IMG/VR virus record: IMGVR_UViG_3300025889_000077
Direction: 5' to 3' (one strand)
Length of the DNA stretch: 64,000 nt
From: an uncultured virus (IMG/VR IMGVR_UViG_3300025889_000077)
Taxonomy: Duplodnaviria; Heunggongvirae; Uroviricota; Caudoviricetes
Positions 4,330 through 34,946 of the stretch are shown one piece after another. A program made the position numbers and the translations under genes. The notes beneath the pieces were generated by a model. That model did no database searches. It worked only from the letters and a program-made list of their open reading frames with translations, and was not told the origin of the DNA. Every line of letters starts with the position of its first letter. Position 1 is the first letter of the stretch.

Positions 4330-4683
4330 ATGGCACAGTACGAAGAGTTCACAATCGATCAAGGTTCTGATGTATCAGTTACCTTAAATTTAGTGAATAC
4401 CGATGGTAGTAAGAAAAATCTTACTGGTTATTCGGTGGCAGCAAAAATGAAGAAAACATACAATTCTGCCGATTCCGATACAACATCTTTTACAACCAAT
4501 ATCACTTCACCTGCTACTGGAGGTATCTGTACTTTGGCTCTGACCAATACTCAAACAGATGCTCTCAAGGCGGGAAGATATGTGTACGATGTTGAAATCT
4601 CATATGTCGATAGTTCTGCTAATACTGTAATAGAAAGAGTTCTAGAGGGTCGTATCCAAGTCACACCGTCAGTTACAAAGTGA
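4330..4683 (+). CDS. Virion structural protein (BppU N-terminal-like, tail/baseplate associated)
   Basis: ATG after GAGG; IDQGSD ... GRYVYDVEI ... RVLEGRIQVTPSVT pattern common in T4-like phages. Confidence 0.6.
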   Translation: MAQYEEFTIDQGSDVSVTLNLVNTDGSKKNLTGYSVAAKMKKTYNSADSDTTSFTTNITSPATGGICTLALTNTQTDALKAGRYVYDVEISYVDSSANTVIERVLEGRIQVTPSVTK

Positions 4684-4694
4684 GGTAGGGATAT

Positions 4695-7600
4695 ATGACT
4701 AATCTAGTTGTCACCGGAGAAACTAAAGTCGCAAAGATTGTAAGCGGCATTACAATCGTAAAATCTATTACAGTTTCAACTCCACAATATACACCCCAAA
4801 GAGTCGTCGAAATTAATACGAATTTTGCGAATATATCACACGACGATATCATACGATATGATAGTTCTTCAGACAATTTTCTACCACAATCATTTGATTC
4901 AGCATTAGATCAATCTAAAGCAACGATCCGAGGTTACTTCAACACGGGTGGGGACCTAACTTATGATTCCGCGACCGGTAAATTTTCTATTGATGTTGAA
5001 GTCGTTTATACAAAAGATAATTTTGATTCAGATTTCAATCTTGCGTTAGATAGTGCCGCTTTGGGTGGTAAAGGTCTTGCATACAACTCCACTACAAACA
5101 CTCTTAGCATAGACTCCGCTGAACTTGCTGCGTATTTCTCTACGGCCGATTTACCTGAAGGCACCAATCTATATTACACAACATCAAGGGCTGATAGCGA
5201 TTTTGATGTTAGATTAGCAACTAAGACCACAACGGATGTAGCAGAGGGTGTAAATCTCTATTATACAACTGCTAGAGCAGACTCAGACGCACGTAGTGCT
5301 TTGGTTGGTGGTACGGGAATAACATACGATTCTTCAACTGGTAACATCAGCATAACAAATACAGGCGTTACAGCGGCAACATATGGTTCCGCTTCTCAAG
5401 TTCCTGTGTTTACTGTAAATGCTCAAGGACAAATTGATTCTGCTGGAACTGTATCAGTCGCAGGTGTTTCTTCAACGTCATTTGATTCAGCATCAGGCAT
5501 ATTTACGATCAACACGGCTGATGGGGGGTCTTACACAACAGCGATTGCCGACTCAGACTTTACCGCCAAAAGAGCAAGAGAATCTGTCTCAGTGACAGAC
5601 GCAGGTGGTGATGGCTCTCTTACATATGCTGAAGCAACAGGCACATTTACATATACAGGACCTTCTGCGACAGAAGTACGAGCGCATCTCGTAAACGGAA
5701 TTGGAATAACATACGATTCTGCTTCTGGTGTTATTTCGACAAACGATGCGCAGATTAATCACGATGCACTAAACAACTTTGTTGCAAACGAACACATTGA
5801 CCACACGTCTGTTACCTTGACTGCTGGCAAGGGTCTTAGTGGTGGTGGTGATATTTCTTCTTCTCGTTCTTTTGCCATCGACTCAGCAGAACTTTATGCT
5901 AAATGGGATCATGATGGATTTAACGATTATGTTGCCAATGAACACATCGACCATACTTCAGTTACGCTAACGGCGGGTAAAGGTCTTTCTGGCGGGGGTG
6001 ACATATCTGCTTCCAGAAGTTTCGCCATCGACTCAGCCGAATTTCTTGCGGGTTACGAAGCATCAATCAATCACGATAACTTGACGGGATTTGTTGGTAA
6101 CGAACACATAGACCATACGTCTGTTACCTTGACTGCTGGTAAGGGTCTCTCTGGTGGAGGCGATATATCCACGAATAGAACTTTCAATATTGACTCAGCA
6201 GAACTTTATGCTCAGTATAACCATGACGATTTTTCCGACTATGTGGCAAATGAACACATCAATCACACAAGCGTCAATATTACTGCTGGTCGCGGTCTAT
6301 CCGGCGGCGGTGATATATCCACGAACAGAACGTTCAATATAGACTCAGCCGAGTTTGCTTCATATTTCACGACTTCAAATCTACCAGAAGGATCGAATCT
6401 CTATTACACAACTGGTCGAACAGACTCAGATGCAAAGAATGCGATATCAGGTGGAACTGGTATTACATACACGGCCGCTACTGGAGTAATCGCAACAAAC
6501 GATGCGCAGATTGATCATGACGCATTGAATAACTTTGTTGCAAACGAACACATAGACCACACCTCAGTCACCTTGACTGCTGGTAAAGGTCTAAGTGGTG
6601 GTGGTGATATATCCACTAATAGAACTTTCAATATTGACTCAGCAGAACTTGCCGCACAATATAGTAAAGTCATTGTACACGACAACACAAATGGTTTCGT
6701 TTCAAATGAACATATAGATCACACCTCAGTTACCTTGACTGCTGGCAAGGGTCTCTCTGGTGGTGGTGATATTAGTACTTCAAGATCATTTGCCATTGAC
6801 TCAGCAGAATTCTTGGCCGGATACGAAGCATCTATCAATCACGATAACCTGACGGGATTTGTGGCAGATGAACACATTGCACATACGTCCGTTACTCTAA
6901 CTGCTGGTCGAGGTCTATCCGGTGGGGGCGATATATCCACGAATAGAACTTTCAATATTGACTCTGCCGAGTTTGCTGCTTATTTCACGACTGCAAATCT
7001 ACCCGAAGGATCGAATCTATATTATACTTCTGCCAGAGCAGATTCGGATGCTAGAAATGCTGTTTCTGCTGTTGATAATGGTGGTGATGGTTCGTTCTCT
7101 TATAGTCCAATTACAGGCATTTTTTCATATACAGGACCTTCTGCCACAGAAGTGAGAGCGCATTTCGTTGCTGGTACTGGTGTTACTTACAATTCTGCTT
7201 CTGGTGTTATTTCTATCGGGCAACCTGTTGCTACAACTGATTCTGTGACATTCTCTGGATTGACTGTATCTGGAAACTTCACGGTCAATGGTACACAAAC
7301 AATAATCAACACACAAACATTGTCCGTTTCAGATCCGATGATACATCTGGCTGATAGTAATGAAACAAGTGATGTTATTGACATTGGTTTCATAGGTCAC
7401 TACTCAAATGATGGCGGCATTACAAAAAGACACACAGGATTTATAAGAGACGCAAGCAATAGTCAATATTATCTTTTCAATGGACTTATAGATTCTTCTT
7501 TAGATTCGAATCCTCCAAATAATATTGTCAATGTTGGTGGAACAGGTTGGACACTTGCGACACTTAATGTTGGTTCATTGACTGGTAAATATTCTGGATT

Positions 7601-10301
7601 TGATTCCGATTTCAATGTATCTCTTGACAATGCCGGATTAGACGGTAAAGGTCTTGCTTACAACTCAGGCACCAATACTCTTAGCATAGACTCAGCAGAA
7701 CTTGCCGCACAATATAGCAAGGTCGTTGTTCATGACAACACAAATGGATTTGTTTCTGATGAACATGTAGCACACACAAGTGTCACCTTGACTGCTGGCA
7801 AGGGCCTTAGTGGTGGTGGTGATATATCTGCATCAAGAAGTTTCGCTATCGACTCGGCTGAGTTTCTTGCGGGTTATGAGGCGTCTATCAACCATGACAA
7901 CTTGACAGGTTTCGTGGCAGACGAACACGTAGCACATACTTCAGTAACCTTGACGGCGGGTAAAGGTCTTTCTGGTGGCGGCGACATTTCAACGAATAGA
8001 AGTTTCGCAATCGACTCAGCAGAACTTTATGCTCAGTATAAACATGATGGATTTAGTGATTATGTTGCAAATGAGCATATCGATCACACAGGAGTAACTC
8101 TAACTGCTGGCAAAGGTCTAAGTGGTGGCGGTGATATTAGTGCATCAAGAAGTTTCGCTATCGACTCGGCTGAGTTCTTAGCAGGTTTCGAAGCAAGTAT
8201 CAACCATGATAATCTAACTGGTTTCGTTTCAAATGAACATATAGATCACACCTCAGTTACCTTGACTGCTGGCAAAGGTCTATCAGGTGGCGGCGATATA
8301 TCTGCTTCAAGATCATTTGCCATTGACTCATCAGAATTGTATGCCAAGTGGGATCACGATGGATTTAACGATTATGTTGCCAATGAACATATCAATCACA
8401 CCGCCGTCACACTAACGGCGGGTAAAGGTCTTTCTGGCGGGGGCGACATATCCTCGTCTAGATCATTTGCTATCGACTCAGCCGAATTCTTGGCAGGCTA
8501 TGAAGCGTCAATCAATCACGACAATCTGTCAGGATTTGTAGCAGACGAACATGTAGCACACACAAGTGTCACCTTGACCGCAGGAAAAGGTCTCACTGGT
8601 GGAGGCGATATTTCTTCGAATAGAAGTTTCGCTATTGACTCGGCTGAATTCTTGGCAGGGTATGAAGCATCTATAAATCACGACAATCTAACTGGATTTG
8701 TTGCAGATGAACATGTAGCACACACCTCAGTCACTCTAACTGCTGGCAAGGGTCTAAGTGGTGGCGGTGACATTAGCGCATCAAGAGCATTTGCTATCGA
8801 CTCAGCGGAATTTTTGGCGGGATACGAAGCATCCATCAATCACGACAATCTAACTGGATTTGTTGCAGATGAACACATAGATCACACTTCAGTTACTCTA
8901 ACAGCGGGTAAAGGTTTATCTGGTGGAGGTGACATATCCTCAAACAGAAGTTTCGCAATCGACTCAGCGGAGTTCTTAGCAGGTTTCGAAGCATCAATCA
9001 ATCACGACAACCTGACAGGTTTCGTTTCAAACGAACATATAGATCACACAAGCGTCACATTAACTGCTGGCAAAGGCCTGTCAGGTGGGGGAGACATTTC
9101 CACTAACAGGTCATTTGCCATTGACTCGGCTGAGTTTCTTGCGGGTTATGAAGCATCAATAAATCACGATAATCTTACTGGTTTTGTGTCGGATGAACAT
9201 GTAGCACACACAAGCGTTACCTTGACTGCTGGTAAAGGTCTATCAGGCGGCGGCGATATCTCCGCTTCACGGTCGTTTGCTATTGATAGTGCAGAGTTCT
9301 TGGCAGGATACGAAGCATCCATCAACCACGATAATCTAACTGGTTTCGTTTCAAACGAACACATAGATCACACAGGAGTAACTCTAACTGCTGGCAAGGG
9401 TCTCTCTGGTGGTGGTGACATATCTTCTAACAGAAGTTTCGCTATAGATTCAGCAGAATTCTTAGCGGGATACGAAGCATCAATCAACCACGATAATCTA
9501 ACGGGATTTGTCGCTAACGAACATATCGATTGGACTTCCGCTTCTGCAAACTTCTTCACTACAGGCGATTTGAGAACAAGTGGAGTTATCACAATCGATT
9601 CAGACGGTGCTGCTCCTTCTGGTACCGCAAAGAAACTTTATAATGTTAATGGTCGTCTGTATTGGAATGGGGTTGTTCTGGATTCGGATTATAAAGGTGG
9701 TGGTGGCGGTGGTGCTTCTGTCACGACTTCGATAACAGCGCCAGTAGGGCCGAGTGATGGTGATCTTTGGTTTAACGAACTTGATGGTACTCTGAACTTA
9801 TGGTTTGTTGACTCCGATACGAGTCAGTGGGTAGATTTATCGGGACCGGCGGGCGTGGATGGCGTAGATGGCGTAGATGGCGTTTCTGTTACAGTCTTTG
9901 ACGACACAACTACAGACGCGACTCGTTATCTTCTATTTAATGATGCCACTTCAGGCGCACTTGATTCGGCTTGGGTATCTTCATCAAAACTTACATACAA
10001 TCCATCGTCTGGTCAAGTTTCGGCGACAGACTTTAACTCGACTTCTGATATCCGTTTCAAAGAAAACGTTGTTCCGTTGGAAGGACAATCTTCGCTTGAC
10101 ATTATAAATAGATTAAATCCAGTCGCGTTTGATTGGAAAGATAACGGAGTTCATAGTTATGGTCTTATTGCCCAAGAACTTGAAAAGATATTGCCAGAAC
10201 TTGTAACAGAAACAGATGGAAAGAAAGGGGTTTCTTATATTCCTTTGATTGCTTTGCTGATAAAAGGAATACAAGAATTGCAGGAGAAACTAAATGGCTA
10301 G
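4695..10301 (+). CDS. Long tail fibre with His-rich repeats and C-terminal intramolecular chaperone (peptidase S74-like)
   Basis: About 18 repeats [42 protein letters not shown] repeats; C-terminal [10 protein letters not shown]...[15 protein letters not shown]...LIKGIQEL. Confidence 0.85.
5760..9530 (+). repeat. Intragenic ~150-160 bp coding tandem repeats in two blocks (7 + 11 units)
   Basis: Repeated translated unit with synonymous codon variation; boundaries approximate. Confidence 0.85.
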
Positions 10302-10905
10302 ACTAAATTTTCCAGCATCACCGACTGATGGACAATCATATGCGTCTGATTCTGGTGGTACATATGTTTGGGATTCTGATAAAACTAAATGGAGCAGAGC
10401 GGTAGGTCCTGCATATGTAACTCTAACTGGTATACAGACGCTCACGAACAAAACCTTGACAGCCCCCATCATTGCGACGATCAGCAATACAGGAACAATC
10501 ACGCTCCCCACGTCTACAGATACTCTTGTGGGCAGGGCGACGACAGACACACTTACCAACAAGACCCTGACTGCCCCGGCAATTTCAAGTCCGACTATGA
10601 CCGGGACGATACTTGAGGACGTATATACACTCTCTGGAACTACCCCGGCGCTGGACCCTGACAACGGCTCCATCCAGACTTGGACGCTATCCGGCAACTC
10701 GACGCCAACGGACAGCCTCTCGGCTGGCGAGTCTATCACCCTGATGATTGACGATGGCACTGCCTACACGATCACATGGCCAACGATGACTTGGATCAAC
10801 AACGCCGGGTCTGCCCCGACACTTGCAACCAGTGGGTATACTGTCGTGGTTCTGTGGAAGGTATCCACGACTCTCTACGGCGCACTGGTGGGGGATGGCA
10901 CCTGA
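10294..10905 (+). CDS. Tail-fibre-associated protein
   Basis: [11 protein letters not shown]...YVWD...KW N-terminus and [10 protein letters not shown] repeats typical of phage fibres. Confidence 0.65.
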
Positions 10906-11465
10906 TGCTGGCGCGTAAACTCATGGGGGCCGGTGGTTTTGGTGGTGGTCCTGCCACTTTTGAGGGCTTTACAATAGATGTAAATTACACCTCTAACTAT
11001 GTGACCCTGTATGAATTTAGAGTGGTTGACCACGATGACGTGGAATGGGCCTTGGCCCTTACACCTAAATCGGACTCGTTCCTGACATATAATTCTATTA
11101 GTGCGGGAGAGGTCTGTGGAAACGGCACCGACGTTGCAAATCAGGTTCTGAATAACTTGCAAGACGGATCGCCAGATATTTCCAGTTCAACAAGTGCTGT
11201 TGGCGGTCAGGTTGCAAGCGCGACAAGCAGTTCGGGCCTAAAGTTGTTTTTCAAGCCCTCAATCTCAAGGTCTGTGAAATACTTGGATATCGCTTTCAAT
11301 AACTATTATGGCTACGCAGGTGGGTCTATGACCCTGTACGCAGGTGATTCAGAAACGGTTTTAACGCCCTCGGACTCACCGGCCAACTCCTCAGACGTCT
11401 ATCAAACCACGGGGAATAGTAACGGTAAGTGGTATCGCTGGACGTATCCAGAAGACCCAACTTGA
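10905..11465 (+). CDS. Putative fibre tip / receptor-binding protein
   Basis: TGATG overlap start [11 protein letters not shown]; beta-rich; lies in the GC-rich module. Confidence 0.5.
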   Translation: MLARKLMGAGGFGGGPATFEGFTIDVNYTSNYVTLYEFRVVDHDDVEWALALTPKSDSFLTYNSISAGEVCGNGTDVANQVLNNLQDGSPDISSSTSAVGGQVASATSSSGLKLFFKPSISRSVKYLDIAFNNYYGYAGGSMTLYAGDSETVLTPSDSPANSSDVYQTTGNSNGKWYRWTYPEDPT

Positions 11466-11478
11466 GAATGAGGATAAA

Positions 11479-11979: not shown

Positions 11980-12147
11980 ATAAACAACACGCAGTGATCT
12001 ATATTATATAAGTATAAAAATATGCTGATAAGAAAATTAAAACAATATCCACAGCATTACTACACATAGACACAACGTTTTCTGGGTTCGCTACTACAGT
12101 TGGTCAGACCAGAAGAACCTACCAGCTAATAGTCAAAGGAGACGAAG

Positions 12148-12639
12148 ATGGCGATTAAAGTATCAGGAATAACGGTTATCAATGATAACCGCGAATTGAC
12201 CAATTTAAACTCCATGAGTGGAGTAATTGCTACTGATTCTGACATCAGGGGCGCGGCGATCTCTAGCGACAAATTAATAACTATTTCCGGTTTCAATACG
12301 GCTAACTATTACACTGATATTGATTCTACCGGTTCTGCCAACATCACTTTAGATTTGAAGGCCGGTATCAACTATCGATTCATTTTACGAAAAAATCTCA
12401 CACTGACAAATCCAATAAATTACGCTGGAATGAATGGAAAATCTGGGTTCATCGAGGCGATACAAGATTCCACTGGAAGTCACACTTTGTCTTACGAAAC
12501 AGACTGGTTGTTCTCTCCCGGCACCCCACCAGATTTAGCTGATAGCGCAAGAGCTTCCGATTTGTTTGGATATCAGGTACAAGATAGTGCCATGATAATT
12601 TCTCGAATAATCTCTCTGTCTAATAGGTTACCAGCTTAA
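12148..12639 (+). CDS. Virion structural protein, MAIK paralogue 1
   Basis: AGGAG RBS; MAIKVSG..VIND; QDSTGSHTL..W.F..G..P.L domain. Confidence 0.6.
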   Translation: MAIKVSGITVINDNRELTNLNSMSGVIATDSDIRGAAISSDKLITISGFNTANYYTDIDSTGSANITLDLKAGINYRFILRKNLTLTNPINYAGMNGKSGFIEAIQDSTGSHTLSYETDWLFSPGTPPDLADSARASDLFGYQVQDSAMIISRIISLSNRLPA

Positions 12640-12650
12640 GGTTAAAAATC

Positions 12651-13907
12651 ATGGCAATCAAAATTAATGGCACTAACGTAATCAACGACGCCGAAAAATT
12701 TGTGAATATAAAAGACGTTCCCGCAAATTACATTGCGACAGATTCAGATGTTCGGGGATTCGCTTACATAGACGCAAACGACTCTGACCTGTTGATGGAC
12801 GTGTACAATAACTTCATCGCTCTCAATTATGTCGCCATTTCCCCCTCCGGTACGGACGTGACTTGGGACCCTTCTAAGTCGATAAATTTTACGGTTCGTA
12901 TGGACGGTAATTATACTATGAAAAACCCAACTCGAACACTATCGCCTTTTGAGGGGAAAACAGGAACATTTGAATTGTGGCAAGATTCGACTGGTTCTAG
13001 AACTATGTCTTGGGAATCGGATTGGAAATTTACAAGCGGTTCTGCTCCGACATTATCCAATTCGCCGGGGGTCACTGATCTTTTTGCATACACCATTGTT
13101 GATTCGGATATCATAGTTTTTAGTGAATATAGTTTTGGTATACCCAAGCCATTACCAAGTCCACCAAGTCCAGAGCTTATAGTATCATTCAGAGGACATA
13201 TTCTGGGCAGAGAAAATAATATTGATAATCCAACTGGTACGACCATTTTGAGGTTAGATTCAAGCGCCGGCCCCGGCGGCACCAGTGTGGTTAATAACAA
13301 AGACTTTATTATTCTTACAGGATTTTGGGATAACACAACATCGACCACAATAACCGCCTCTGTTGGGGGGACGGCTGCCACCGAAATTATAGAAAACTAT
13401 TCGTCAGGAGAGTATCCAGAAGGCGCTTCATTTTATTTCAAATCGGATTCAAATTACAGCATTTCTTCGGGTAGCACCAAAATTACTGCCACTTCAGACT
13501 ACACGAATTATCCGACTGGTGTCGCTTTAATATTCAACACTAATGGAGCAGACTATACAATTTCGGTCGGTAATACCGTAGAGGCTGATGGGCCAAGCGC
13601 GTTGAACACAACTCTGAACGCAGAAGCGGTGACTACAGTGCCAGCGAACACGTACAGAATTAAAACCTACTTCGGTACAGGTAGACCAATCAACGTCCGC
13701 CTTCAGAACCTGAATGTGACATATCCTAGTGATGATTGGACAACAAACTCCTTTGATGGAGATGGAGCGAATGGCGGCAAGGATGATATGAATTATTCGT
13801 ATATAATTTTAGGTCCGGGTGATATTGATTCGGATTTCACATTCACAACAAATGATGCTGGCCGTCAAGCGCACCACATCATGAGCATAGACTTAACGAA
13901 AGCCTAA
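12651..13907 (+). CDS. Virion structural protein, MAIK paralogue 2 with extra C-terminal domain
   Basis: MAIKING..VIND; QDSTGSRT..W...W.F; Pro-rich linker PKPLPSPPSP. Confidence 0.6.
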   Translation: MAIKINGTNVINDAEKFVNIKDVPANYIATDSDVRGFAYIDANDSDLLMDVYNNFIALNYVAISPSGTDVTWDPSKSINFTVRMDGNYTMKNPTRTLSPFEGKTGTFELWQDSTGSRTMSWESDWKFTSGSAPTLSNSPGVTDLFAYTIVDSDIIVFSEYSFGIPKPLPSPPSPELIVSFRGHILGRENNIDNPTGTTILRLDSSAGPGGTSVVNNKDFIILTGFWDNTTSTTITASVGGTAATEIIENYSSGEYPEGASFYFKSDSNYSISSGSTKITATSDYTNYPTGVALIFNTNGADYTISVGNTVEADGPSALNTTLNAEAVTTVPANTYRIKTYFGTGRPINVRLQNLNVTYPSDDWTTNSFDGDGANGGKDDMNYSYIILGPGDIDSDFTFTTNDAGRQAHHIMSIDLTKA

Positions 13908-23878: not shown

Positions 23879-25606
23879 ATGGCATTATTCACTCCATCAG
23901 AATCTCCAGCGGTAACGTTCAAGGAGATCGATTTAACTGGTGTAGCACCGAATGTTCAGTCAACCACAGGCGCTTTTGTTGGCGATTTTAGTTGGGGTCC
24001 AGTGAGAGATCCTGTTCTTATTGCAAACGAAAACGAATTGGTTACTACTTTTGGCGCACCAGATTCAGATAACACTATAGATTTCCATTCGGCTGCTTAC
24101 TTCCTGAAATACTCAGGCAGTCTACAGGTCGTGAGAGAAGCGACTTCAGCGGCCAAAAACTCTTATGATTCCGATGCTGCTTCAGCACCAACTGTACGGG
24201 AACGGGATCATTTTGACACTCAAGTGACCGCACTTGATAGTGACAATCATACATTTATTTCAAAATATCCGGGCGAACTCGGCAACGCAATTAAAATTGA
24301 AGTTTGCCCAGTTGACTCAGCCGGTACTGCGTTTGATGCGTGGACCTATGTGAATGAATTTGATTCGGCGCCCGGTACATCCACATACGCTTCAAATAGA
24401 AGTGCTACCAATGACGAAGCACATGTTATCGTCGTTGACAGAACTGGTAAAATGACTGGTACTGTTGGTACCATTCTCGAAAGATATCCATTCGTTTCTC
24501 TTGCTAAAAACGCAAAGAATACTGATGGTTCCACAAACTACATCAAAGATGTTATCAATGGCCGTTCACGTTACATTTGGATGGCCGGTTTTGGTAACCA
24601 ATCAAAGTTTGATGCTCTTGCTGGTACTGATGCGGATTCCGGAGACAACTTCATATTCTCGGGTGGCGCTGTTCAAACATTCACCATGCAAGGTGGTGTG
24701 AACTCAGGAACTCTTACCACGTCAGAATATGCGACAGGGTTTGACGAGTTTGAAGATGTTGACAATATTCAGGTGGATTTCTTGATTGCGCCTGGTATGT
24801 CATCAAGAGCGAATCAAACAACCGTTGTCAATGATCTTATCGCGATTGCCGGATCGACTCGCAAAGACTGCGTTGTTGTAGCATCACCCGCAAGATCGGA
24901 TATCGTCAATGGCGCAACTCCAGTTGCCGATGCTGTAACAACCGCGAACACATTTACGAACTCGTCGTATCTGTTCATGGATAATGCTTACTTCAAAATA
25001 TACGACAAATATAATGATCAGTATATCCACATTCCGGCGGCATCATCAACTGCTGGTGTTATGGCACTATCTGATCTTTCTTCTGCTCCTTGGTTCTCAC
25101 CAGCAGGCGCGAGAAGAGGTAACTATCTTGGTGTAACAGCATTGACATATTCGCCAACAAAAGCAAATAGAGACACACTCTATAAAGCAGGTATCAACCC
25201 AATCGCCAATATTCCTGGCGAAGGTCTGATGCTTTATGGTGATAAGACACATCTACGCAGACCATCCGCATTTGATAGAATCAATGTGCGCCGTCTGTTC
25301 CTTGTTCTTGAAAGATCAATCGCAATTGCCGCAAGATCGGTCATGTTTGAATTCAACGATGAATTCACCCGTGCCGAATTTGTGAACATTGTTGAACCTC
25401 TTTTAAGAGAAGTCAAAGGTCGTCGTGGTATCACTGACTTCCGCGTTGTGTGTGATGCGTCAAACAACACCGCCGCTGTTATAGATAGAAATGAGTTCGT
25501 TGCTGATATCTACATCAAGCCAGCGAGATCAATCAACTATGTCACCCTCAATTTCGTTGCTGTTCGCACTGGTGTGGATTTCAACGAAGTTGTTGGCACA
25601 GTATAA
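23879..25606 (+). CDS. gp18: Tail sheath protein gp18
   Basis: SPAV..KEIDLT; F.WGP; PWFSPAG..RG; YGDKT...SAFDRINVRRLF; FEFNDEFTR; IKPARSINYVTLNFVA. Confidence 0.96.
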   Translation: MALFTPSESPAVTFKEIDLTGVAPNVQSTTGAFVGDFSWGPVRDPVLIANENELVTTFGAPDSDNTIDFHSAAYFLKYSGSLQVVREATSAAKNSYDSDAASAPTVRERDHFDTQVTALDSDNHTFISKYPGELGNAIKIEVCPVDSAGTAFDAWTYVNEFDSAPGTSTYASNRSATNDEAHVIVVDRTGKMTGTVGTILERYPFVSLAKNAKNTDGSTNYIKDVINGRSRYIWMAGFGNQSKFDALAGTDADSGDNFIFSGGAVQTFTMQGGVNSGTLTTSEYATGFDEFEDVDNIQVDFLIAPGMSSRANQTTVVNDLIAIAGSTRKDCVVVASPARSDIVNGATPVADAVTTANTFTNSSYLFMDNAYFKIYDKYNDQYIHIPAASSTAGVMALSDLSSAPWFSPAGARRGNYLGVTALTYSPTKANRDTLYKAGINPIANIPGEGLMLYGDKTHLRRPSAFDRINVRRLFLVLERSIAIAARSVMFEFNDEFTRAEFVNIVEPLLREVKGRRGITDFRVVCDASNNTAAVIDRNEFVADIYIKPARSINYVTLNFVAVRTGVDFNEVVGTV

Positions 25607-26166: not shown

Positions 26167-26192
26167 GACTAGGAGGGGAAACTCTCCTAGTC
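26167..26192 (+). promoter_or_regulatory. Hairpin GACTAGGAG...CTCCTAGTC between gp19 and gp20, just after a late-promoter variant ACTAAATA (26158-26165)
   Basis: Perfect 9-bp inverted repeat. Confidence 0.5.
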
Positions 26193-26217
26193 ATTATTAC
26201 TTACATGAAGGCTAGAC

Positions 26218-27918: not shown

Positions 27919-27919
27919 C

Positions 27920-28909
27920 ATGTCTCATGAAAATAAATTACTCGCTACTGCCTTACTCTATAGTGATGAAAACACAGAAGAGGTCCGAAAGGAACTGAAA
28001 GAACTAAAGTTGGGTATCTTGAAAAAGATATCTGCTTTGATGGAAGACATAGAGACTATTGATAATAGATTGCTTGAAGAACAAACAACTATTGTAGAAG
28101 GTCCTAAAGGTGATAAGGGGGAGAAAGGTGAAAAAGGTGATACGGGACCAGTAGGTCCGCAAGGATTGATTGGTGAACAGGGCGAGATTGGTCCTCAAGG
28201 CGTTCAAGGCGATAAAGGTGAGCAAGGCGAAAGAGGTCTTGATGGTTCCCAAGGAGAAAGAGGACCTCGTGGTTATCAAGGGCCGATAGGACCTAAAGGC
28301 GATAAGGGCGATAAGGGGTTTCAAGGAGAAAAAGGTGAACAAGGCGAACCAGGTATCCAAGGAAAAAAGGGAGATACTGGTGAAACTGGACCTAAAGGTG
28401 ACCGAGGCGAAAAAGGTGATATTGGTCCAAGAGGTCCTGAAGGATCAACCGGTCCCATGGGCCCAAAGGGAAAAAGAGGCGATAAAGGTGATACGGGACC
28501 AGTAGGACCACAAGGCCCCGAAGGTCCTGCTGGCAAAGATGCAGCATTGCCAAATGTGCAGCCATACATTGAAGAAGTAGAAAAGAACTTCAAGACATGG
28601 CAAGCAAATGTGAATAAGTCATTAAGTACATTAGGCGGTGGCGGTTCTTATAATTTGATGGACAATGCTGATGTTGTTCGTACACGAAAAGAGAATATAC
28701 CAGATCGTGCTATACTGATATATAATAAAGACATTGATAAATATGAAGTACAACTTATAGATAATGCAATCGGTGGTGGTGATTCTTCGGTTCCCTTATT
28801 CATACAAGATTCGGCACCGACAACAGAATTGAATAAATATTTATGGATACAAACGAATATAGATAGTGATTCAGATAGTTTTACATTCTGGTTCGATGAT
28901 GGGTGCTAA
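27920..28909 (+). CDS. Collagen-like (Gly-X-Y) fibre protein
   Basis: Long uninterrupted GXY run (GPKGDKGEKG...GPAGKD) between coiled-coil-like N- and C-terminal parts. Confidence 0.85.
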   Translation: MSHENKLLATALLYSDENTEEVRKELKELKLGILKKISALMEDIETIDNRLLEEQTTIVEGPKGDKGEKGEKGDTGPVGPQGLIGEQGEIGPQGVQGDKGEQGERGLDGSQGERGPRGYQGPIGPKGDKGDKGFQGEKGEQGEPGIQGKKGDTGETGPKGDRGEKGDIGPRGPEGSTGPMGPKGKRGDKGDTGPVGPQGPEGPAGKDAALPNVQPYIEEVEKNFKTWQANVNKSLSTLGGGGSYNLMDNADVVRTRKENIPDRAILIYNKDIDKYEVQLIDNAIGGGDSSVPLFIQDSAPTTELNKYLWIQTNIDSDSDSFTFWFDDGC

Positions 28910-28935
28910 GAAAAAACAAATGAGGAGAAAAACTA

Positions 28936-29493
28936 ATGACAATCATTAGAGATGGCGCGGGCAGTGGATATCAGGCGAAGGTAAGTTCTATTAATAGACT
29001 ATTGACTGATGCTGTTACAACACCCGTTTTTGCTGAGAGATCAGATACAAATGGGGATGCTTATGTTGCTATTACAGATCACATTTCTATGACCACAACG
29101 GACACTGAGACCGGCAATCTTTATATAAAAAATACTGGAACAAGAAACATATTGGTCCACAGTATAAGAACATGCGGAACGGTTGTATCGTTGTGGAAAA
29201 TGTATACTAATTCCACAACAGGTACACTAATATCTGCCGCAACAGATGCATATGTCAACAATTTGAATTTGAGTTCAAATAATGTTTCGACAGTGAATGC
29301 TTACAGAGGTGTGAATGGATCAACAGTAACAAATGGAACATTCTTTGAACAGTGGATCAACGGGACAGGTCACAGCGAAGAATTTTTTAACGGTGCGTTG
29401 ATTATCAGTCCTCAGAAAAGTATTGCACTTACTGTTGAAGTCGCGACTGCGGGAACTATTTGCACAAGACTAATTTATTATTATGGTGAATAA
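28936..29493 (+). CDS. Putative virion decoration protein
   Basis: MTIIRDGAGSGYQAKV..NRL; paralogous to 29688. Confidence 0.5.
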   Translation: MTIIRDGAGSGYQAKVSSINRLLTDAVTTPVFAERSDTNGDAYVAITDHISMTTTDTETGNLYIKNTGTRNILVHSIRTCGTVVSLWKMYTNSTTGTLISAATDAYVNNLNLSSNNVSTVNAYRGVNGSTVTNGTFFEQWINGTGHSEEFFNGALIISPQKSIALTVEVATAGTICTRLIYYYGE

Positions 29494-29496
29494 AGC

Positions 29497-29691
29497 ATGG
29501 CATTAAGAAACGCATTCCAAGATTTAGCAACAGAAAAAACCCTTAATAATTTTAAGATAGGTAATGATACACTAGATCGGGAATTATTGACAGAAATTTT
29601 ATACGAACTCAAGAAGATAAATCTTCATTTATCTATTGTCACAGGTGAAGAATTATCAGACGAAGAAATTAATTTGGAGGAAAGACTATGA
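29497..29691 (+). CDS. Hypothetical protein
   Basis: LLTEILYELKKINLHLSIVTGEEL helix; in operon. Confidence 0.55.
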   Translation: MALRNAFQDLATEKTLNNFKIGNDTLDRELLTEILYELKKINLHLSIVTGEELSDEEINLEERL

Positions 29692-30257
29692 AAATAGAAT
29701 CTGGATCTGGTAATGGTAAATGGGTATCTGTTACAGATAATAATCAATTAAATGTTTATTCAGAAACATCATCACAACAACACATTATCAGTCTAAGAGA
29801 TGGTAATGCATACCAAGTCTGGGGTACGGGGACATGTGTAAATGGTACTGTCACGATTTTACATTTGAAAAATAATTCTACTTTAGATATGGTTGTAAGT
29901 TATATTCGTTGGCAAATTTTAGATCCCTCTGGTGGAACTGCTTTGCCGAATGCGTCTAACTATTTACAGATAGGTTTTGATACGACATATTCTTCTGGGG
30001 GTACATCAAAAACTCCTACAAATATGAACTCAGGATCTGGTAAACTTTCTTCCGTGACAGCTTATAATGCTGGGCCAACAACAACCGGAACAATTGACGT
30101 GTTTGATCGTCATTATCCAAAAGAAGAAGGAGAAATGTACAGATTCAATAAAGAGGGTTCGCTTATCATTCCTCCCGGAAAAACTATGGAAATAAACTAC
30201 GTTGGTGATCATACTTCGGGAACCGTATATACTAGAGTTTCGTTCTATTTACAGTAA
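29688..30257 (+). CDS. Putative virion decoration protein
   Basis: MKIESGSGNGK.V.V...NQL; shares LKNN, N.N..S and LII.P.K motifs with 28936. Confidence 0.5.
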   Translation: MKIESGSGNGKWVSVTDNNQLNVYSETSSQQHIISLRDGNAYQVWGTGTCVNGTVTILHLKNNSTLDMVVSYIRWQILDPSGGTALPNASNYLQIGFDTTYSSGGTSKTPTNMNSGSGKLSSVTAYNAGPTTTGTIDVFDRHYPKEEGEMYRFNKEGSLIIPPGKTMEINYVGDHTSGTVYTRVSFYLQ

Positions 30258-30268
30258 GAGAATAAAAT

Positions 30269-31396
30269 ATGATAAAGTTTGAAATTGGTAGTACTACTAG
30301 CGGACATACTGCTGACGTTGTGCGTGATGACAATCATGCAGACGGTATACCAAATAAACCATATGGCATTGCTGCTTACACGCATCCTATGGTTCATCAT
30401 GTCAATAATAATATCATAGCATCAAATGATTCATATGGACCAGATTTAAATCAAAATATCTCCGCTGGTGGTACTCCGCTGTTGATTCATAATGGTGGTG
30501 ATAGTGCTGGATGGAGCGCATCGACAATTTCTGGGACATGGGATTTTGTTTCGACTGATCAAGCAAATAGTGGCGCACAAAGTATAGACGCTTCAGGAAC
30601 AGTTGGTGGAGCAGAGGCACTTTTCAATAGAGACTCTGGTGCTATTACATTTGGTAATTACGAATCATTATCTGGTTCGATCTATCTATCGTCTTGGTCT
30701 CTTCAGGGAGATAAAGATGTTTCTTTAAGATTTAGACTCGCCGGAACAAATGTGAGCAACGAATTAAATTTATCTGAATATATTTCTACTATAACTTTAA
30801 ATGCTTGGCAAAATTTTTCAATAGGTCTTTCAGATTTTGCAATTGTTGGTACAACTTTAGATCAGTTGGTAGTTAAAACTATTGATATCGGAGCCGGTCA
30901 GGCACCTAATTATTATTTAGACGATATTCAGTTCGAAGAAACAGGCGCTCCAGCAATTTTCAAGATGGCACCAAATTCTGGTCAAAGGGTCGCTGCAAGA
31001 GGTCTAGAATTGATATTGGTTGACGCATTAAATCCGACTGCGACTGACGGCGCATCTTATGGATACTCGTATAATAAAATTCTCAATGTTAATGAGTTAC
31101 AGAATGGCATTATCTTTAGATGGTATAGAAAAAATAAATTGCGGTTTTCGGGAAATGTGAAAAATCTATTCGATTTTTTGAATCTGCCCGGCAGTCGGAT
31201 CGTGACTTCAGTATCAGATTCAACAAACACTATGTTAAAGATTCGATTTGATTTTACGACTGAAATTGAGTTATTGGGTTCTGAAAATGACAGAATCGAG
31301 ATTGTTATTCGAGATGATTTGAGCGGACTATTAAAATTTAGAGCAACACTTATAGCAGATTTGATCACTTCTGTTATTGAAGATGTTATAGATTAA
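30269..31396 (+). CDS. Putative virion protein with carbohydrate-binding-like beta-sandwich
   Basis: WQNFSIGLSDF...YYLDDIQF jelly-roll-like pattern. Confidence 0.45.
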   Translation: MIKFEIGSTTSGHTADVVRDDNHADGIPNKPYGIAAYTHPMVHHVNNNIIASNDSYGPDLNQNISAGGTPLLIHNGGDSAGWSASTISGTWDFVSTDQANSGAQSIDASGTVGGAEALFNRDSGAITFGNYESLSGSIYLSSWSLQGDKDVSLRFRLAGTNVSNELNLSEYISTITLNAWQNFSIGLSDFAIVGTTLDQLVVKTIDIGAGQAPNYYLDDIQFEETGAPAIFKMAPNSGQRVAARGLELILVDALNPTATDGASYGYSYNKILNVNELQNGIIFRWYRKNKLRFSGNVKNLFDFLNLPGSRIVTSVSDSTNTMLKIRFDFTTEIELLGSENDRIEIVIRDDLSGLLKFRATLIADLITSVIEDVID

Positions 31397-31408
31397 AGGA
31401 AGAAGCAA

Positions 31409-31627
31409 ATGGCATGGAATACGATAAGAGGTGGAATTTGGGAATATGATGATAATCCACCAGATCCTGGCAACATTGCGCAAAGAGCATTATGGGAAAA
31501 GCAGACAAACGGCATTCGAACAACAGGTGTAAATCAGGTTTATGTGAAATGTAGAAAAGTAGGTTCGACTGTAGAAACTGAAGGTGAGTTGAGCAAGACA
31601 TATTGGGACAATGTTAGTTTAACTTAA
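31409..31627 (+). CDS. Hypothetical protein
   Basis: AGGA RBS, in operon. Confidence 0.55.
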   Translation: MAWNTIRGGIWEYDDNPPDPGNIAQRALWEKQTNGIRTTGVNQVYVKCRKVGSTVETEGELSKTYWDNVSLT

Positions 31628-31645
31628 TGTCAAAAACTTTAAAAG

Positions 31646-31653
31646 TATAAATA
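31646..31653 (+). promoter_or_regulatory. T4-type late promoter TATAAATA
   Basis: Upstream of the prohead genes. Confidence 0.8.
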
Positions 31654-31678
31654 ATATTAAATTATAAGGAGATTTGAA

Positions 31679-31879
31679 ATGAGCGAATACGCTGAAAATA
31701 TTATTGATAACATTCTTAGCAAAAACTATACCAATGCTGGTGATGCAATTAATCAAGCATTACATGCAAAAGTAGCAGATGCTTTTGAAACTATTAAAAT
31801 CGGCATGGGTGCTGATTACTCTGGTTATGAACTTGCTGACGAAGACGACTACGAAGAACTGGAATCGGAGGAAGAATAA
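31679..31879 (+). CDS. Small acidic prohead core protein (gp67-like)
   Basis: Size, acidic tail and position between gp20 and gp21. Confidence 0.55.
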   Translation: MSEYAENIIDNILSKNYTNAGDAINQALHAKVADAFETIKIGMGADYSGYELADEDDYEELESEEE

Positions 31880-31882
31880 CAA

Positions 31883-31970
31883 ATGAAACTGATTACCGAA
31901 TATTTAAAACTCGGTAGATAGCAACTTCTTCCAATGAAGGTAAAAAAAGAAAAGAAGAAAGAATTTTCGC
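31883..31970 (+). pseudogene. Duplicated gp21 start (MKLITEYLKLGR*) plus relic sequence
   Basis: ATGAAACTGATTACCGAATAT vs ATGAAACTAATTACCGAATAC at 31971. Confidence 0.6.
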
Positions 31971-32633
31971 ATGAAACTAATTACCGAATACGTTGAAGAT
32001 GATCTAGAGGTCATCGCCGAAGCAAAAGCAGACGGTCGCAAGAAATACGCGATTGAAGGCGTATTCATGCAAGCAGAGACAAAGAATAGAAATGGTCGCA
32101 TCTATCCAAGAGGAATCATGGAAGGTGCGGTCAACAAATATATTGAAGATCAAGTAAGTAAAGGTCGTGCTGTTGGTGAATTGAATCATCCTACAGGTCC
32201 GACTATTAACTTAGACAAAGTTTCGCACAAAATTGACGAACTCAAATGGGACGGCAATAATGTGATCGGAAGAGCAACCATTCTTGAAACTCCATGTGGT
32301 CAAATCGTAAGAGGATTACTTGAAGGGGGTGTAAAGTTGGGTGTTTCAACTCGTGGTATGGGAAGTCTGGAACAAAGGGAAGGCATTAACTATGTCAAAC
32401 CTGATTTCGTTTTAAGTACAGTTGATATCGTACAAGATCCATCAGCGCACGATGCGTTTGTTAATGGGATTATGGAAGGTGTAGATTGGATCTGGAATAA
32501 CGGAATCTTGGAAGCCAGAGAAGTGAGAAAAATGGAGACTGAAATTAGAAAGGCTCCACGCGCTAATCTCTATGAGACGCAGGTTCGTGAGTTTAAAAAT
32601 TTCCTCTCATTAGTTAAATCAAAATCAAGATAA
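31971..32633 (+). CDS. gp21: Prohead protease gp21
   Basis: IEGVFMQAE.KNRNGRIYP; GELNHP; LGVSTRGMGSL; DIVQDPSA.DAFV.GIMEG. Confidence 0.95.
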   Translation: MKLITEYVEDDLEVIAEAKADGRKKYAIEGVFMQAETKNRNGRIYPRGIMEGAVNKYIEDQVSKGRAVGELNHPTGPTINLDKVSHKIDELKWDGNNVIGRATILETPCGQIVRGLLEGGVKLGVSTRGMGSLEQREGINYVKPDFVLSTVDIVQDPSAHDAFVNGIMEGVDWIWNNGILEAREVRKMETEIRKAPRANLYETQVREFKNFLSLVKSKSR

Positions 32634-32651
32634 TTGATAGGAGTCAAATAA

Positions 32652-33578
32652 ATGACAAAAAAATATGAAGATGATCTTGAGCTAGATTACGATGGCGAAG
32701 AAATCGAAGAAGCTCATGACGAAAAAAATGCTGAAGAACAATCTGTTGCTTCAGTAGCTGCTGCCGATGATAAAGTAAAAGGCGCAAAAAAGCGTAAAGG
32801 TGATAAGGAGAATTCTATGCCTAGCGAACTTAAAGTTGCTAAAGAAGATTTCGAAGATGACCTTGACGCTCTTATTTCAGAAGAAGCCACTCTTTCAGAA
32901 GGTTTCAAAAAGAAAGCGGCAACGATCTTTGAAGCGGTGATCAATTCAAAACTCAAAGAAGAAATTGACCGTCTTGAAGAAGCCTATGAAGAAAAACTTA
33001 CGGAGGATCTGGAAGTCTACAAAGATGCTCTCGCAGAAGAAGTGGATGCGTATCTGAATCTAGTAGTTGAAACTTGGATGAAGGAAAATGAAATTGCAAT
33101 CGAACAAGGTCTTCGTACCGAGATTGCTGAGAACTTCATGGAAGGTCTCAAGAACTTGTTTATGGAATCATACATTGAAGTACCTGAATCACAGGTTAAT
33201 GTTGTAGACGAATTGGCAGCTGAAATTGATTCATTGAAAGAAACTGTGAATACTTACACAGAAGCAATGCTTGCAATGAACGAGGATCTGGAAGCATATC
33301 ACAAGCGTGATATCATTCTGGAGAAATCATCTGGTCTTGCCGAAACCGAAATCGAAAAACTCTTTTCGTTGGTTGAGGATTTAGATTTTGAAGATGCTGA
33401 AACTTTCTCGGAGAAAGTGGATACCATCAAGAAATCTTATTTCAAAAAATCTATTTCAGAAGGTGCGGATGAAACCGATGATCTTCTCGTAGATAAAGAC
33501 ATGGGTGCCATTGCTCAAATCGACAATGACACTATGGCAAAATATGTTGATGCGATCCGTCGCCAAAGAAAAGAATAA
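32652..33578 (+). CDS. gp22: Prohead core scaffold protein gp22
   Basis: Acidic coiled coil; LSEGFK.KAATIFEA; W..EN.IAIE.GLRTEIAE.F. Confidence 0.92.
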   Translation: MTKKYEDDLELDYDGEEIEEAHDEKNAEEQSVASVAAADDKVKGAKKRKGDKENSMPSELKVAKEDFEDDLDALISEEATLSEGFKKKAATIFEAVINSKLKEEIDRLEEAYEEKLTEDLEVYKDALAEEVDAYLNLVVETWMKENEIAIEQGLRTEIAENFMEGLKNLFMESYIEVPESQVNVVDELAAEIDSLKETVNTYTEAMLAMNEDLEAYHKRDIILEKSSGLAETEIEKLFSLVEDLDFEDAETFSEKVDTIKKSYFKKSISEGADETDDLLVDKDMGAIAQIDNDTMAKYVDAIRRQRKE

Positions 33579-33605
33579 TAACAATACATTCAGGAGAATA
33601 AAAAA

Positions 33606-34946
33606 ATGTATAACCAACAACTCCCTAACTATTCTTCTCTCGTCGAGAAGTGGGGCAGCGTTCTTAATGAAGATGCTGCCGGTAAAATCACAGACTATCA
33701 CAAGAAGTCGGTCACTGCCGTTCTTCTTGAAAACCAAGAGCGTGCCATGCGCGAAGAAGGTATGCTTCTTCACGAAGGTACAGGTGCTCCTTCAAACAGC
33801 ACAACTTCAGCGGCCAACTGGAACCCAGTTCTGATTTCGCTTGTTCGTCGTGCGATGCCAAACCTCGTCGCTTATGATATCTGCGGCGTTCAGCCGATGA
33901 CTGGTCCTACTGGTCTTATCTTCGCGATGAAGTCGCGCTATGGTGACGGTTCTACAGCGTCTACTGAAGCACTCTTCAACGAAGCTAACACGAAGTACGG
34001 TGGTGAATCTTCGGGTTCCGCTCAAGACGCATCGCCTTCTGGTCTGCTTGGTCTAACCGACTCTAACAGCGACTCTTCTATCAACAATGATCGTGTTGGT
34101 CCTGTTGTCGGTACTGGTATGGCGACAGACGATGCGGAAGCCCTCGGTTCTACGGGTGGTTCGACTTTCAATGACATGGGATTCACCATCGAAAAAGCAA
34201 CCGTGACTGCGAAGTCCCGTGCATTGCAGGCAGACTATTCGCTTGAACTCGCACAAGACTTGAAAGCGATCCACGGTCTTGATGCTGAAACCGAACTTGC
34301 GAATATTCTCACGACTGAAATCCTTGCAGAAATCAACCGTGAAGTTGTTCGTACAGTCAACTCGCAAGCGAAAACTGGTGCTTCACAAGCTAACACTGCT
34401 ATCAACGGTATCTTCGATCTTTCGACCGATGCTGATGGTCGTTGGTCGGTTGAGAAGTTCAAGGGTCTCGTTATTCAAATCGAAAGAGAAGCCAATGTGA
34501 TTGCAAAAGAGACTCGGAGAGGCAAAGGTAACTTCGTTCTCTGTTCGTCTGATGTTGCCTCGGCTCTTGCTGCTTCGGGTATGCTTGACTATGCTCCTGC
34601 TATGTCAACGAGCCTCAATGTTGATGACACAGGCAACACATTCGCTGGTGTTCTGAATGGACGTACCAGAGTGTACATTGACCCATATTCGGCAACCGAT
34701 TATGTGAACGTTGGTTATAAGGGTACAAACCCATATGACGCTGGTGTGTTCTACTGCCCATACGTTCCTCTGACGATGGTTCGTGCCGTTGTTGAAGCGA
34801 CCTTCCAGCCGAAAATCGGCTTCAAGACTCGCTACGGTATGGTATCTAACCCATTCGTTGGTTCGACACCTGCTAACGGTCTTGCAACTGCGAAAACAAA
34901 TCAATATTATCGTATCTTTAGGGTTGATAATATGCTATCTGCATAA
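33606..34946 (+). CDS. gp23: Major capsid protein gp23
   Basis: LISLVRRAMPNL.AYDICGVQPMTGPTGLIFAM; ELAQDLKAIHGLDAE.EL; FYCPYVPL; FQPKIGFKTRYG. Confidence 0.97.
   Translation: MYNQQLPNYSSLVEKWGSVLNEDAAGKITDYHKKSVTAVLLENQERAMREEGMLLHEGTGAPSNSTTSAANWNPVLISLVRRAMPNLVAYDICGVQPMTGPTGLIFAMKSRYGDGSTASTEALFNEANTKYGGESSGSAQDASPSGLLGLTDSNSDSSINNDRVGPVVGTGMATDDAEALGSTGGSTFNDMGFTIEKATVTAKSRALQADYSLELAQDLKAIHGLDAETELANILTTEILAEINREVVRTVNSQAKTGASQANTAINGIFDLSTDADGRWSVEKFKGLVIQIEREANVIAKETRRGKGNFVLCSSDVASALAASGMLDYAPAMSTSLNVDDTGNTFAGVLNGRTRVYIDPYSATDYVNVGYKGTNPYDAGVFYCPYVPLTMVRAVVEATFQPKIGFKTRYGMVSNPFVGSTPANGLATAKTNQYYRIFRVDNMLSA

Follow-up and report, generated by a model that had tools for sequence, protein, structure and literature searches.

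Why do the structural proteins of a marine phage carry so many aspartate-serine (DS) dipeptides, and does anything read them? This question is raised by a 64,000-nt stretch of DNA from an uncultured virus (IMG/VR record IMGVR_UViG_3300025889_000077; the whole stretch, at its full length, is referred to here as the window). The window is DNA of a marine T4-like myovirus; its major capsid protein gp23 (33606-34946, plus strand) is 64% identical to that of Phage C48C1, 61% to that of Pelagibacter phage HTVC008M, and 57-60% to those of Methylophilales and cyanobacterial myoviruses. The cultured relatives infect SAR11, OM43-type methylophiles (Methylophilales), and cyanobacteria. An earlier note on this DNA had proposed that DS sites on exposed virion parts are glycosylated by enzymes that the phage itself encodes. 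Here, we describe the motif and how specific it is, which proteins and genomes carry it, and which families of enzymes are encoded with it. We found that the signal unit is the tripeptide D-S-(D/A/S), which is sharper than DS alone. Based on these findings, we lean toward the idea that D-S-(D/A/S) serves as an acceptor tag by which the phage directs Ser O-glycosylation of exposed virion surfaces, a modification that we infer from the motif and its distribution.

DS dipeptides in virion proteins of the window

The DS counts per protein given in the earlier note were all reproduced. The 1,868-amino acid (aa) tail fiber (4695-10301, plus strand), which has a C-terminal Peptidase_S74 chaperone (residues 1784-1838), contains 43 DS versus 19.0 expected, 13 of them within the first 350 aa, and 19 SD. 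The three "MAIK" paralogs, which are small fiber/spike-type domain proteins (12148-12639, 12651-13907, and 13912-14427, all plus strand), contain five, seven, and six DS, respectively. The tail sheath protein gp18 (23879-25606, plus strand) has six, three of them as DSD and all at residues 62-253. The neck proteins gp14 (15935-16834, plus strand; 299 aa) and gp15 (17148-17930, plus strand; 260 aa) have three each, in the C-terminal part only (residues 186-231 and 224-258, respectively), while the two DS of gp23 lie in one loop (TDSNSDSS). The 329-aa collagen-like protein (27920-28909, plus strand; Pfam Collagen, 1.9e-25) has five at residues 288-319, including IDSDSDSF near the C-terminus. Among the window proteins counted, gp19, gp13, gp32, gp44, and gp45 have no DS, and gp17, gp46, gp47, and UvsW have one each.

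Compared with whole-protein shuffles, DS was significant alone in the fiber (p 0.0005), in the MAIK paralogs 13912-14427 (p 0.0005) and 12148-12639 (p 0.0105), and in the collagen-like protein (p 0.0025), and was not significant alone in gp18 (6 vs 3.5, p 0.13), gp14 (p 0.31), gp15 (p 0.10), or gp23 (2 vs 2.1). Taken singly and corrected for composition, only the fiber, these two MAIK paralogs, and the collagen-like protein are enriched in DS. The pooled virion set comprises 23 open reading frames (ORFs; 22 without the fiber), 10 of which were classed as virion by position only. Without the fiber, this set contains 53 DS versus 31.4 expected, which ranks second of the 400 dipeptides, and 43 SD; in the pooled non-virion set of the window, DS ranks 394th (31 vs 45.7). 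The excess survived local shuffles in blocks of 8, 15, and 30 residues (53 vs ~33, p 0.001). DT is depleted in the virion set without the fiber (25 vs 33.4) and in the fiber (2 vs 15.6).

The signal unit is the tripeptide D-S-(D/A/S)

D-S-(D/A/S) occurs 29 times versus 7.0 expected in the window virion set without the fiber and 40 times versus 5.8 expected in the fiber; in the non-virion set, we found 3 versus 7.8. In the virion set without the fiber, the excess is made up of DSD (16 vs 2.2), DSA (9 vs 2.3), and DSS (4 vs 2.5), and in the fiber, DSD (10 vs 1.6) and DSA (26 vs 1.9) are both over-represented. In an unbiased screen, DSD was the most over-represented of all tripeptides in the window virion set. 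The signal is directional, in that the mirror tripeptides ASD and SSD, as well as DDS and SDD, are near expectation, and in three genomes DSA and DSS together number 87 versus 36 for their mirrors ASD and SSD. SDS is raised in the window (10 vs 2.5), in part from a DSDSDS run. The third position is selective: DSG, DSN, DST, and DSE are not enriched, and the same holds for DS with I, L, V, M, or T as the next residue. Gly is enriched two residues after the Ser of the motif. A general DxD metal site was considered and set aside, because DxD with middle residues other than Ser shows no enrichment.

It could be argued that the excess is an artifact of composition, of repeats, or of a DNA-level GANTC signal. 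At least 19 of the 43 fiber DS come from one repeat context, xIDSAE(F/L), and are for this reason not independent; paralogs and orthologs are likewise not independent; and DS encoded as GAY-TCN reads GANTC. Nevertheless, we consider an artifact very unlikely. Local composition fails as the cause because block shuffles never reached the observed counts: for the virion set without the fiber, the local shuffles had a mean of 8.2 and a maximum of 20, and 0 of 1,000 reached 29; for the fiber, in which the motif occurs in 25 distinct 8-residue contexts, 0 of 1,000 reached 40. The signal holds without the fiber and in five further genomes, and the sites of nine virion protein families fall in 74 distinct alignment columns. 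The share of TCN codons for Ser after Asp equals the background (0.79 vs 0.80 overall in the window; 0.79-0.88 vs a background of 0.80-0.83 in the overall test), and GANTC is in no excess in other frames or regions. Because of these two results, we conclude that the signal resides in the protein, as the earlier note had claimed from the variety of codons, and a DNA-level cause was rejected.

The specificity also bears on the Bacteroidota O-glycosylation sequon to which the earlier note had linked the DS sites. This sequon, D-(S/T)-(A/I/L/V/M/T), resembles the phage motif in having three residues with Asp first and a hydroxyl residue second, and DSA fits it (PMC8550257). The phage motif differs in that Thr is unused and DT depleted; in that Asp and Ser are allowed and favored as third residues (DSD and DSS are misfits to the sequon), while branched or large residues are not, DS showing no excess before I, L, V, M, or T; and in that its targets are cytoplasmic. 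Tailed-phage virions assemble in the cytoplasm, whereas the Bacteroidota system acts on exported proteins. Moreover, no Bacteroidota host is indicated, the cultured relatives infecting SAR11, Methylophilales, and cyanobacteria. The link does not hold up, and action of a general O-glycosylation system of a Bacteroidota host on these sites is the least probable of the explanations that we considered.

The motif recurs within one clade and is scarce outside virion proteins

We extended the counts of D-S-(D/A/S) to five uncultured contigs of the same clade (G002, G003, G004, G006, and G007), in which gp23 is 70-81% identical to that of the window; G006 and G007 are complete, and the G003 contig is 59% complete. 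In virion proteins, we found 62 versus 17.0 expected in G003, 45 versus 14.8 in G002, 12 versus 3.7 in G004, 48 versus 17.2 in G006, and 70 versus 18.7 in G007. The corresponding counts in non-virion proteins were 7 versus 14.4, 10 versus 15.9, 11 versus 17.7, 8 versus 13.8, and 9 versus 13.9, and ORFs without a homolog had 9 versus 13.2 in G006 and 6 versus 12.2 in G007. Among all tripeptides, DSD ranks first, DSA third, and DSS fourth in G003, and DSS ranks first in G002. Pooled over the six clade genomes, virion proteins without the window fiber have 266 versus 78.4, and non-virion proteins have 63 versus 108.9 (0.58-fold; Poisson 1.3e-6); because the clade genomes are related, these pooled counts are not independent events.

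By contrast, motif-negative genomes have 50 versus 59.7 in virion proteins and 103 versus 102.3 (1.01-fold) in non-virion proteins when pooled. In T4, virion proteins have 67 DS versus 58.9 and 11 D-S-(D/A/S) versus 12.2, and non-virion proteins have 9 D-S-(D/A/S) versus 9.0. No excess of the motif was found in the uncultured contigs G005 (20 vs 21.8; 77% complete) and G009 (10 vs 13.2) or in the core virion proteins of HTVC008M and P-SSM2; G009, HTVC008M, P-SSM2, and T4 are complete. C48C1, analyzed over its whole tail module, is weakly positive (outer proteins 43 vs 22.5, mostly from three fiber/connector proteins; inner proteins 1 vs 4.3). A general trait of T4-like virion proteins can accordingly be rejected, since T4, G005, G009, HTVC008M, and P-SSM2 are negative. 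The stamp on exposed virion parts that the earlier note had described is therefore a protein-level and lineage-specific signal that is repeated in five clade genomes and is lacking in the outgroups.

Sites are concentrated in presumably outward-facing parts of the virion

Within the virion, the sites are unevenly placed. In four clade genomes, the inner set, consisting of the hub, the gp48-, gp53-, gp5-, gp25-, and gp6-like proteins, gp4, gp13, the tube, and the portal, has 3 motifs versus 17.0 expected (0.18-fold). Nearly all other virion sites fall in gp7-, gp8-, and gp10-like proteins, VrlC-like giant proteins, fibers, the C-termini of gp14 and gp15, the N-terminal half of gp18, and one loop of gp23, which are parts that we take to face outward from the architecture of T4. 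The decoration of the whole virion that had been envisaged is too wide, as the capsid has two sites in one loop and the tube, portal, hub, and inner baseplate have none.

In 46 gp18 relatives, D-S-(D/A/S) occupies 15 alignment columns, all corresponding to window positions 62-275 and none in the C-terminal half; there are one to five sites per sequence and exactly three in 29 of the 46, so that positions turn over while the count stays. This alignment, together with what we know of the T4 domains, suggests that the gp18 sites are exposed. The gp15 sites are kept in 28, 31, and 23 of 31 relatives, two gp14 sites in 18 of 24 each, and the gp23 DS at position 156 in 16 of 17. As judged from the alignments of the nine virion protein families, the sites are derived and convergent within the clade: in the 74 site columns, 64 of the 214 comparisons with outgroups show a gap, and only about four of the other 150 (at least four; two each among the tripeptides listed) show DSD or DSA. 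T4 has DQ, DG, DW, DA, DA, and DA at aligned sites, and a solved collar-fiber protein (9d93) has TDGS where the window fiber has TDSD.

The MAIK domain family has 12,353 matches, mostly at the C-termini of fiber-like proteins. Of 199 domains of this family, 160 have no DS (mean 0.36), while the window copies have four to six; at the window DS positions, the family has DA, DG, TA, TT, SS, or TD. In the predicted model of the paralog 13912-14427 (predicted local distance difference test [pLDDT] 84), whose fold has a weak likeness to phage spike and gp10-type domains, all six DS lie in loops or hairpin turns. None of the six starts a helix, and the MAIK model thus gives no support to the idea that IDSAEF in the fiber is a helix N-cap.

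An alternative is an unmodified motif, adopted by this clade, that forms turns or cation-binding (Ca2+/Mg2+) loops that stabilize or solubilize the virion in seawater, with the sugar enzymes serving the host envelope or DNA. We give this explanation a minor but real chance. The location of all six modeled MAIK sites in loops and hairpin turns agrees with it, as do the enrichment of Gly two residues after the Ser, the observation that the Asp is often older than the Ser (T4 has DQ, DG, DW, and DA, and the MAIK family has an invariant D115), and the published view that such glycosyltransferases modify the host surface (PMC7029224). However, the turn formers Gly and Asn are not favored as third residues, DSA and DSS have no second acid, and other DxD are not enriched. 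Further, a motif of the fold does not predict the clade-specific loss of the tripeptide from enzymes (0.58-fold, compared with 1.01-fold in the outgroups) and from the inner virion (0.18-fold), and the same folds occur without the tag in T4, G005, G009, HTVC008M, and P-SSM2.

Glycosyltransferase genes lie in and beside the virion gene module

The earlier note's claim that the phage has many sugar enzymes is borne out: the window encodes glycosyltransferases of the GT-A type (five glycosyltransferase 8 [GT8]-like proteins and two GT25 proteins), two sulfotransferases, one clear and two weak methyltransferases, an HAD/NTP-transferase, and an aminotransferase. Upstream of the fiber, an enzyme block (1-4252) holds a sulfotransferase (693-1259), a class-III aminotransferase (1810-2940), and a GT8-like gene (3500-4252), all on the plus strand, and the last is directly upstream of the fiber-assembly and fiber genes. 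On the minus strand, the glycan gene cluster (37210-46174) contains GT8-like genes (37210-37944, 40329-41132, 41129-41827, and 45392-46174), two GT25 genes (37839-38483 and 38483-39187), a sulfotransferase (41824-42522), a methyltransferase (43309-44046), and an HAD/NTP-transferase fusion (44043-45395). It is part of a minus-strand enzyme cluster at 35-47 kb with replication and recombination genes beyond. The notion that the cluster is a fixed neighbor of gp23 has to be abandoned, as the window ORFs 35022-47081 had no match among the loci compared for this purpose, including 80 centered on gp23.

The five GT8-like ORFs belong to a single family, which is also represented in G002, G003, and G004 and has a DxD (D75 and D77) that is invariant in 16 sequences. 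Against solved structures, the family profile matched WbbM (4.7e-8), LARGE1 (1.8e-7), LgtC (5.3e-7), and glycogenin (5e-6). Matches to the Pfam GT8 model PF01501 were below the gathering score (6 of 16 members, best E 2.4e-4; the first member has 14.7 bits vs a cut-off of 24.3), and two GT8-like proteins gave no match in tblastn against 50,697 phage records. No GT-B (PF00534) match was found in G002, G003, G006, or G007, and none was recognized among the window ORFs by Pfam.

GT8-like genes are present in nine copies in G002, seven each in G006 and G007, five in the window, three in G003, two each in G004 and C48C1, and one each in HTVC008M and G009; G005, P-SSM2, and T4 have none. The motif goes with these sugar enzymes across genomes, a co-occurrence that the earlier note had suggested looking for (Spearman rho 0.73 between motif and GT8-like copy number, n=12, uncorrected for phylogeny). 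Phage glycosyltransferase genes also lie in or beside the virion gene module: two to three GT8-like copies are inside the virion module ahead of the fiber genes in G002, G003, G006, and G007, and in G002 one (41667-42368) is between gp14 and gp15. GT25 was rejected as a marker of the motif: P-SSM2 and G009 have GT25 but not the motif, and the motif-positive G003 contig has no GT25.

Two further observations concern the GT8-like genes and GT25. A clade-specific six-ORF block in the tail module (G002 28889-33408 and G003 57608-62163) includes two to three GT8-like ORFs and none with the motif; its 430-, 153-, and 220-aa ORFs have no family, and the G002 430-aa ORF gave weak fiber-like leads only (Atlas). 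In the complete relative G006, a 647-aa ORF that immediately precedes gp13 inside the virion module includes a GT25 domain (C1 57542-58081). Collagen hydroxylysine galactosyltransferases belong to GT25, and in the window the collagen-like protein 27920-28909 co-occurs with the GT25 pair 37839-39187 and a weak cupin/Asp-Arg-hydroxylase-like ORF (5-700). Collagen hydroxylation and glycosylation may be another use for this pair.

The specificity and avoidance described above say only that something reads the tripeptide, and the same tag might be read by something other than a glycosyltransferase, leading to Ser phosphorylation or another small modification, to Asp hydroxylation, or to recognition by an assembly factor. 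Some serine kinases favor acidic contexts, and the cupin/Asp-hydroxylase-like ORF 5-700 could be counted on this side; with E 0.011, it is the one sub-threshold match left of the Asp-hydroxylase-like oxygenases that had been announced earlier. We nevertheless regard such a reader as improbable: no kinase was recognized in family scans of the window ORFs, the oxygenase match is sub-threshold, 2OG oxygenases are abundant in HTVC008M and P-SSM2, which lack the motif, and the enzymes that track the motif are sugar transferases.

A candidate for the first transfer

Next to the glycan gene cluster, the minus-strand ORF 36599-37210 encodes a small Maf/sialyltransferase-like enzyme of 203 aa, with a weak family assignment. 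Orthologs are present in G002, G004, G006, G007, G010, and C48C1, and none was found in the complete genomes G009, HTVC008M, P-SSM2, and T4, in G005 (77% complete), or in the G003 contig (59% complete). The family thus occurs in six of seven motif-positive and none of five motif-negative genomes, a tally that holds because C48C1, analyzed on its whole tail module, counts as weakly positive. PF01973 matched three of five members of the family at E 0.06-0.07, below threshold (13.3 bits vs a cut-off of 34.6), and in the nearest named Atlas cluster 13% of members have PF01973. For the predicted model (pLDDT 67.7), comparison to 48,161 chains with VIA-align gave the CstI sialyltransferase 2p56 as the best (Z 8.0, root mean square deviation [rmsd] 4.5, 159 residues aligned) and Maf 5mu5 as the second best (Z 7.9, rmsd 4.0, 154 aligned). 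Foldseek with this model found nothing below E 0.01, and a sequence profile found nothing significant among solved structures.

Late-promoter-like sequences and gene order

The T4-type late-promoter-like sequence TATAAATA has 13 matches in the window versus 4.7 expected, most of them just upstream of virion genes. It lies 33-68 nt before the fiber-assembly gene, gp13, gp18, and a gp3-like gene. A minus-strand match at 46642-46649 lies 117 nt upstream of ORF 46184-46525, at the head of the minus-strand cluster. The plus-strand sites are at 4260, 14445, 19251, 23811, and 31646, and the other minus-strand sites are at 47851, 49128, 53433, 54068, 58415, and 60385.

The fiber-assembly protein is encoded at 4297-4683. 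The fiber downstream of it has ~20 copies of a 50-54-aa His-rich repeat, and the related fiber repeats of G002 and G003 have neither the His motif nor DS. ORFs 10294-10905 and 10776-11465 share 130 nt in a region with a GC content of 0.50 versus ~0.38 elsewhere. In G007, a single 542-aa ORF is 50% identical to window ORF 10294-10905 and has eight D-S-(D/A/S) versus 1.1 expected; as judged from these sequences, 10294-11465 may be a split or frameshifted virion gene. The region 14482-34946 comprises gp13, a homing endonuclease, gp14 to gp20, the collagen-like protein, gp21, gp22, and gp23 in this order, with the homing-endonuclease ORF (15231-15794) between gp13 and gp14. In HTVC008M and P-SSM2, both without the motif, many 2OG-Fe(II) oxygenase genes are found among the structural genes.

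Discussion

What kind of process would leave such a pattern? The motif is directional, specific for Ser, and selective for the third residue; it is found on outward parts only and is lost from enzymes and buried parts. This is expected of a motif that is read by a soluble enzyme and would be hard to explain by fold alone. We favor Ser O-glycosylation because the genes that distinguish the clade encode sugar transferases and because DSD is the proven minimal acceptor of the bacterial O-GlcNAc transferase SdgB (PMC8561734). According to this model, surface loops of the outer baseplate, the fibers, the neck-protein C-termini, the outer domains of the sheath, and a single loop of the capsid would display the tag. 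In the late phase of infection, the Ser would be modified in the cytoplasm by soluble enzymes of the phage, most likely with a sugar. For the first transfer, the best candidate is the 36599-37210 product; GT8-like and GT25 enzymes might then extend the chain, and the sulfo- and methyltransferases might tailor it. The tripeptide would have been lost from proteins that are not to be modified, i.e., enzymes and buried virion parts. What we infer, then, is the modification of the Ser itself, the identity of the enzyme that would act first, and the kind of sugar.

Several known systems offer parallels. Staphylococcal SdgB and SdgA resemble the model in having an Asp-flanked Ser as acceptor and soluble enzymes that decorate a surface protein, and they differ in that long tandem (SD)n tracts in a few adhesins are modified and the writers are GT-B enzymes (PMC8561734, PMC3794999). 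In the phage, single tripeptides are spread over loops of many virion proteins, and Ala or Ser is also allowed as the third residue; the longest SD run in the window is the DSDSDS of the collagen-like protein, and other sites are isolated. In mycobacteriophages, phage glycosyltransferases near structural genes are reportedly thought or shown to coat the virion, and in this work, by Freeman et al. from 2023, the targets are said to be capsid and tail-tube subunits of actinobacterial siphoviruses, with no short sequon of the D-S kind. The phage studied here differs: its tube and capsid hold hardly any sites, and modification would instead fall on the outer tail, the neck, and the fibers of marine T4-like myoviruses. 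Maf and GT42 enzymes transfer sugars in the cytoplasm to exposed Ser/Thr of a structural protein before assembly (PMC4065374, PMC3426422). The 36599-37210 protein differs from Maf in having only 203 aa and in matching below the family thresholds. Maf is not known to use a short sequon.

The genomic setting is familiar from pelagimyophages and cyanomyophages, in which the host recognition cluster is described, in passages of the source, as a variable island between a VrlC-like giant gene and gp14 with fibers and glycosyltransferases, GT8 being the commonest (PMC7029224). G002 has this layout (phrog_358 giant genes, enzyme block, fiber genes, gp13, and gp14), G003, G006, and G007 have the same gene order, and the window starts inside the island. 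In contrast to our model, the transferases are read there as modifiers of host O-chains, and no virion-protein motif is reported in these passages (PMC7029224). Our literature searches turned up no description of a D-S tag on marine phage virions in the titles and abstract openings listed.

Several points weigh against a glycan acceptor tag. The co-occurrence of motif and enzymes rests essentially on one clade and because of this may reflect a single event in evolution. In G003 the motif is strong, yet neither the 36599-37210 family nor GT25 was found in its contig (59% complete), while motif-negative phages (P-SSM2 and G009) also carry GT25 and one GT8-like gene. The assignment of the 36599-37210 family is weak (a sub-threshold Pfam match, Z ~8, and pLDDT 68), though consistent, and no gene of the nonulosonate pathway, CMP-nonulosonate synthesis included, was recognized among the window ORFs (Pfam, PHROGs). 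DS is somewhat low also in outgroup non-virion proteins (T4 0.80 and HTVC008M 0.51). GT8 and GT25 are mostly lipopolysaccharide enzymes, and published work reads the phage copies as host-surface modifiers (PMC7029224, PMC12801897). Finally, our reading is drawn from sequence and distribution, and the glycan itself is a prediction.

Extending the glycan acceptor tag further, we tentatively propose, as a picture that falls short of probable, that this abundant clade of uncultured, pelagimyophage-like marine phages may carry a glycan of its own, possibly methylated or sulfated, on all outward surfaces of tail, neck, outer baseplate, and fibers, that a small Maf/sialyltransferase-like enzyme initiates and GT8/GT25 enzymes extend it, that the code has been purged elsewhere in the proteome, and that the transferases of the host recognition cluster act on the virion instead of the host. 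Should phage sugar enzymes indeed read the tag, virion glycosylation, so far a matter of a few actinophages, would reach myoviruses that are very abundant in the ocean; the puzzling number of glycosyltransferases in their structural regions would gain a testable function; and D-S-(D/A/S) would be the first short sequon for cytoplasmic, virus-encoded protein glycosylation. The clade-specific loss of the motif from non-targets would then be a trace, rarely seen, that a modifying enzyme has left across a whole proteome. A glycan coat on fibers and tail would bear on host recognition, on stability and stickiness in seawater, and on how these phages are detected and cultured.

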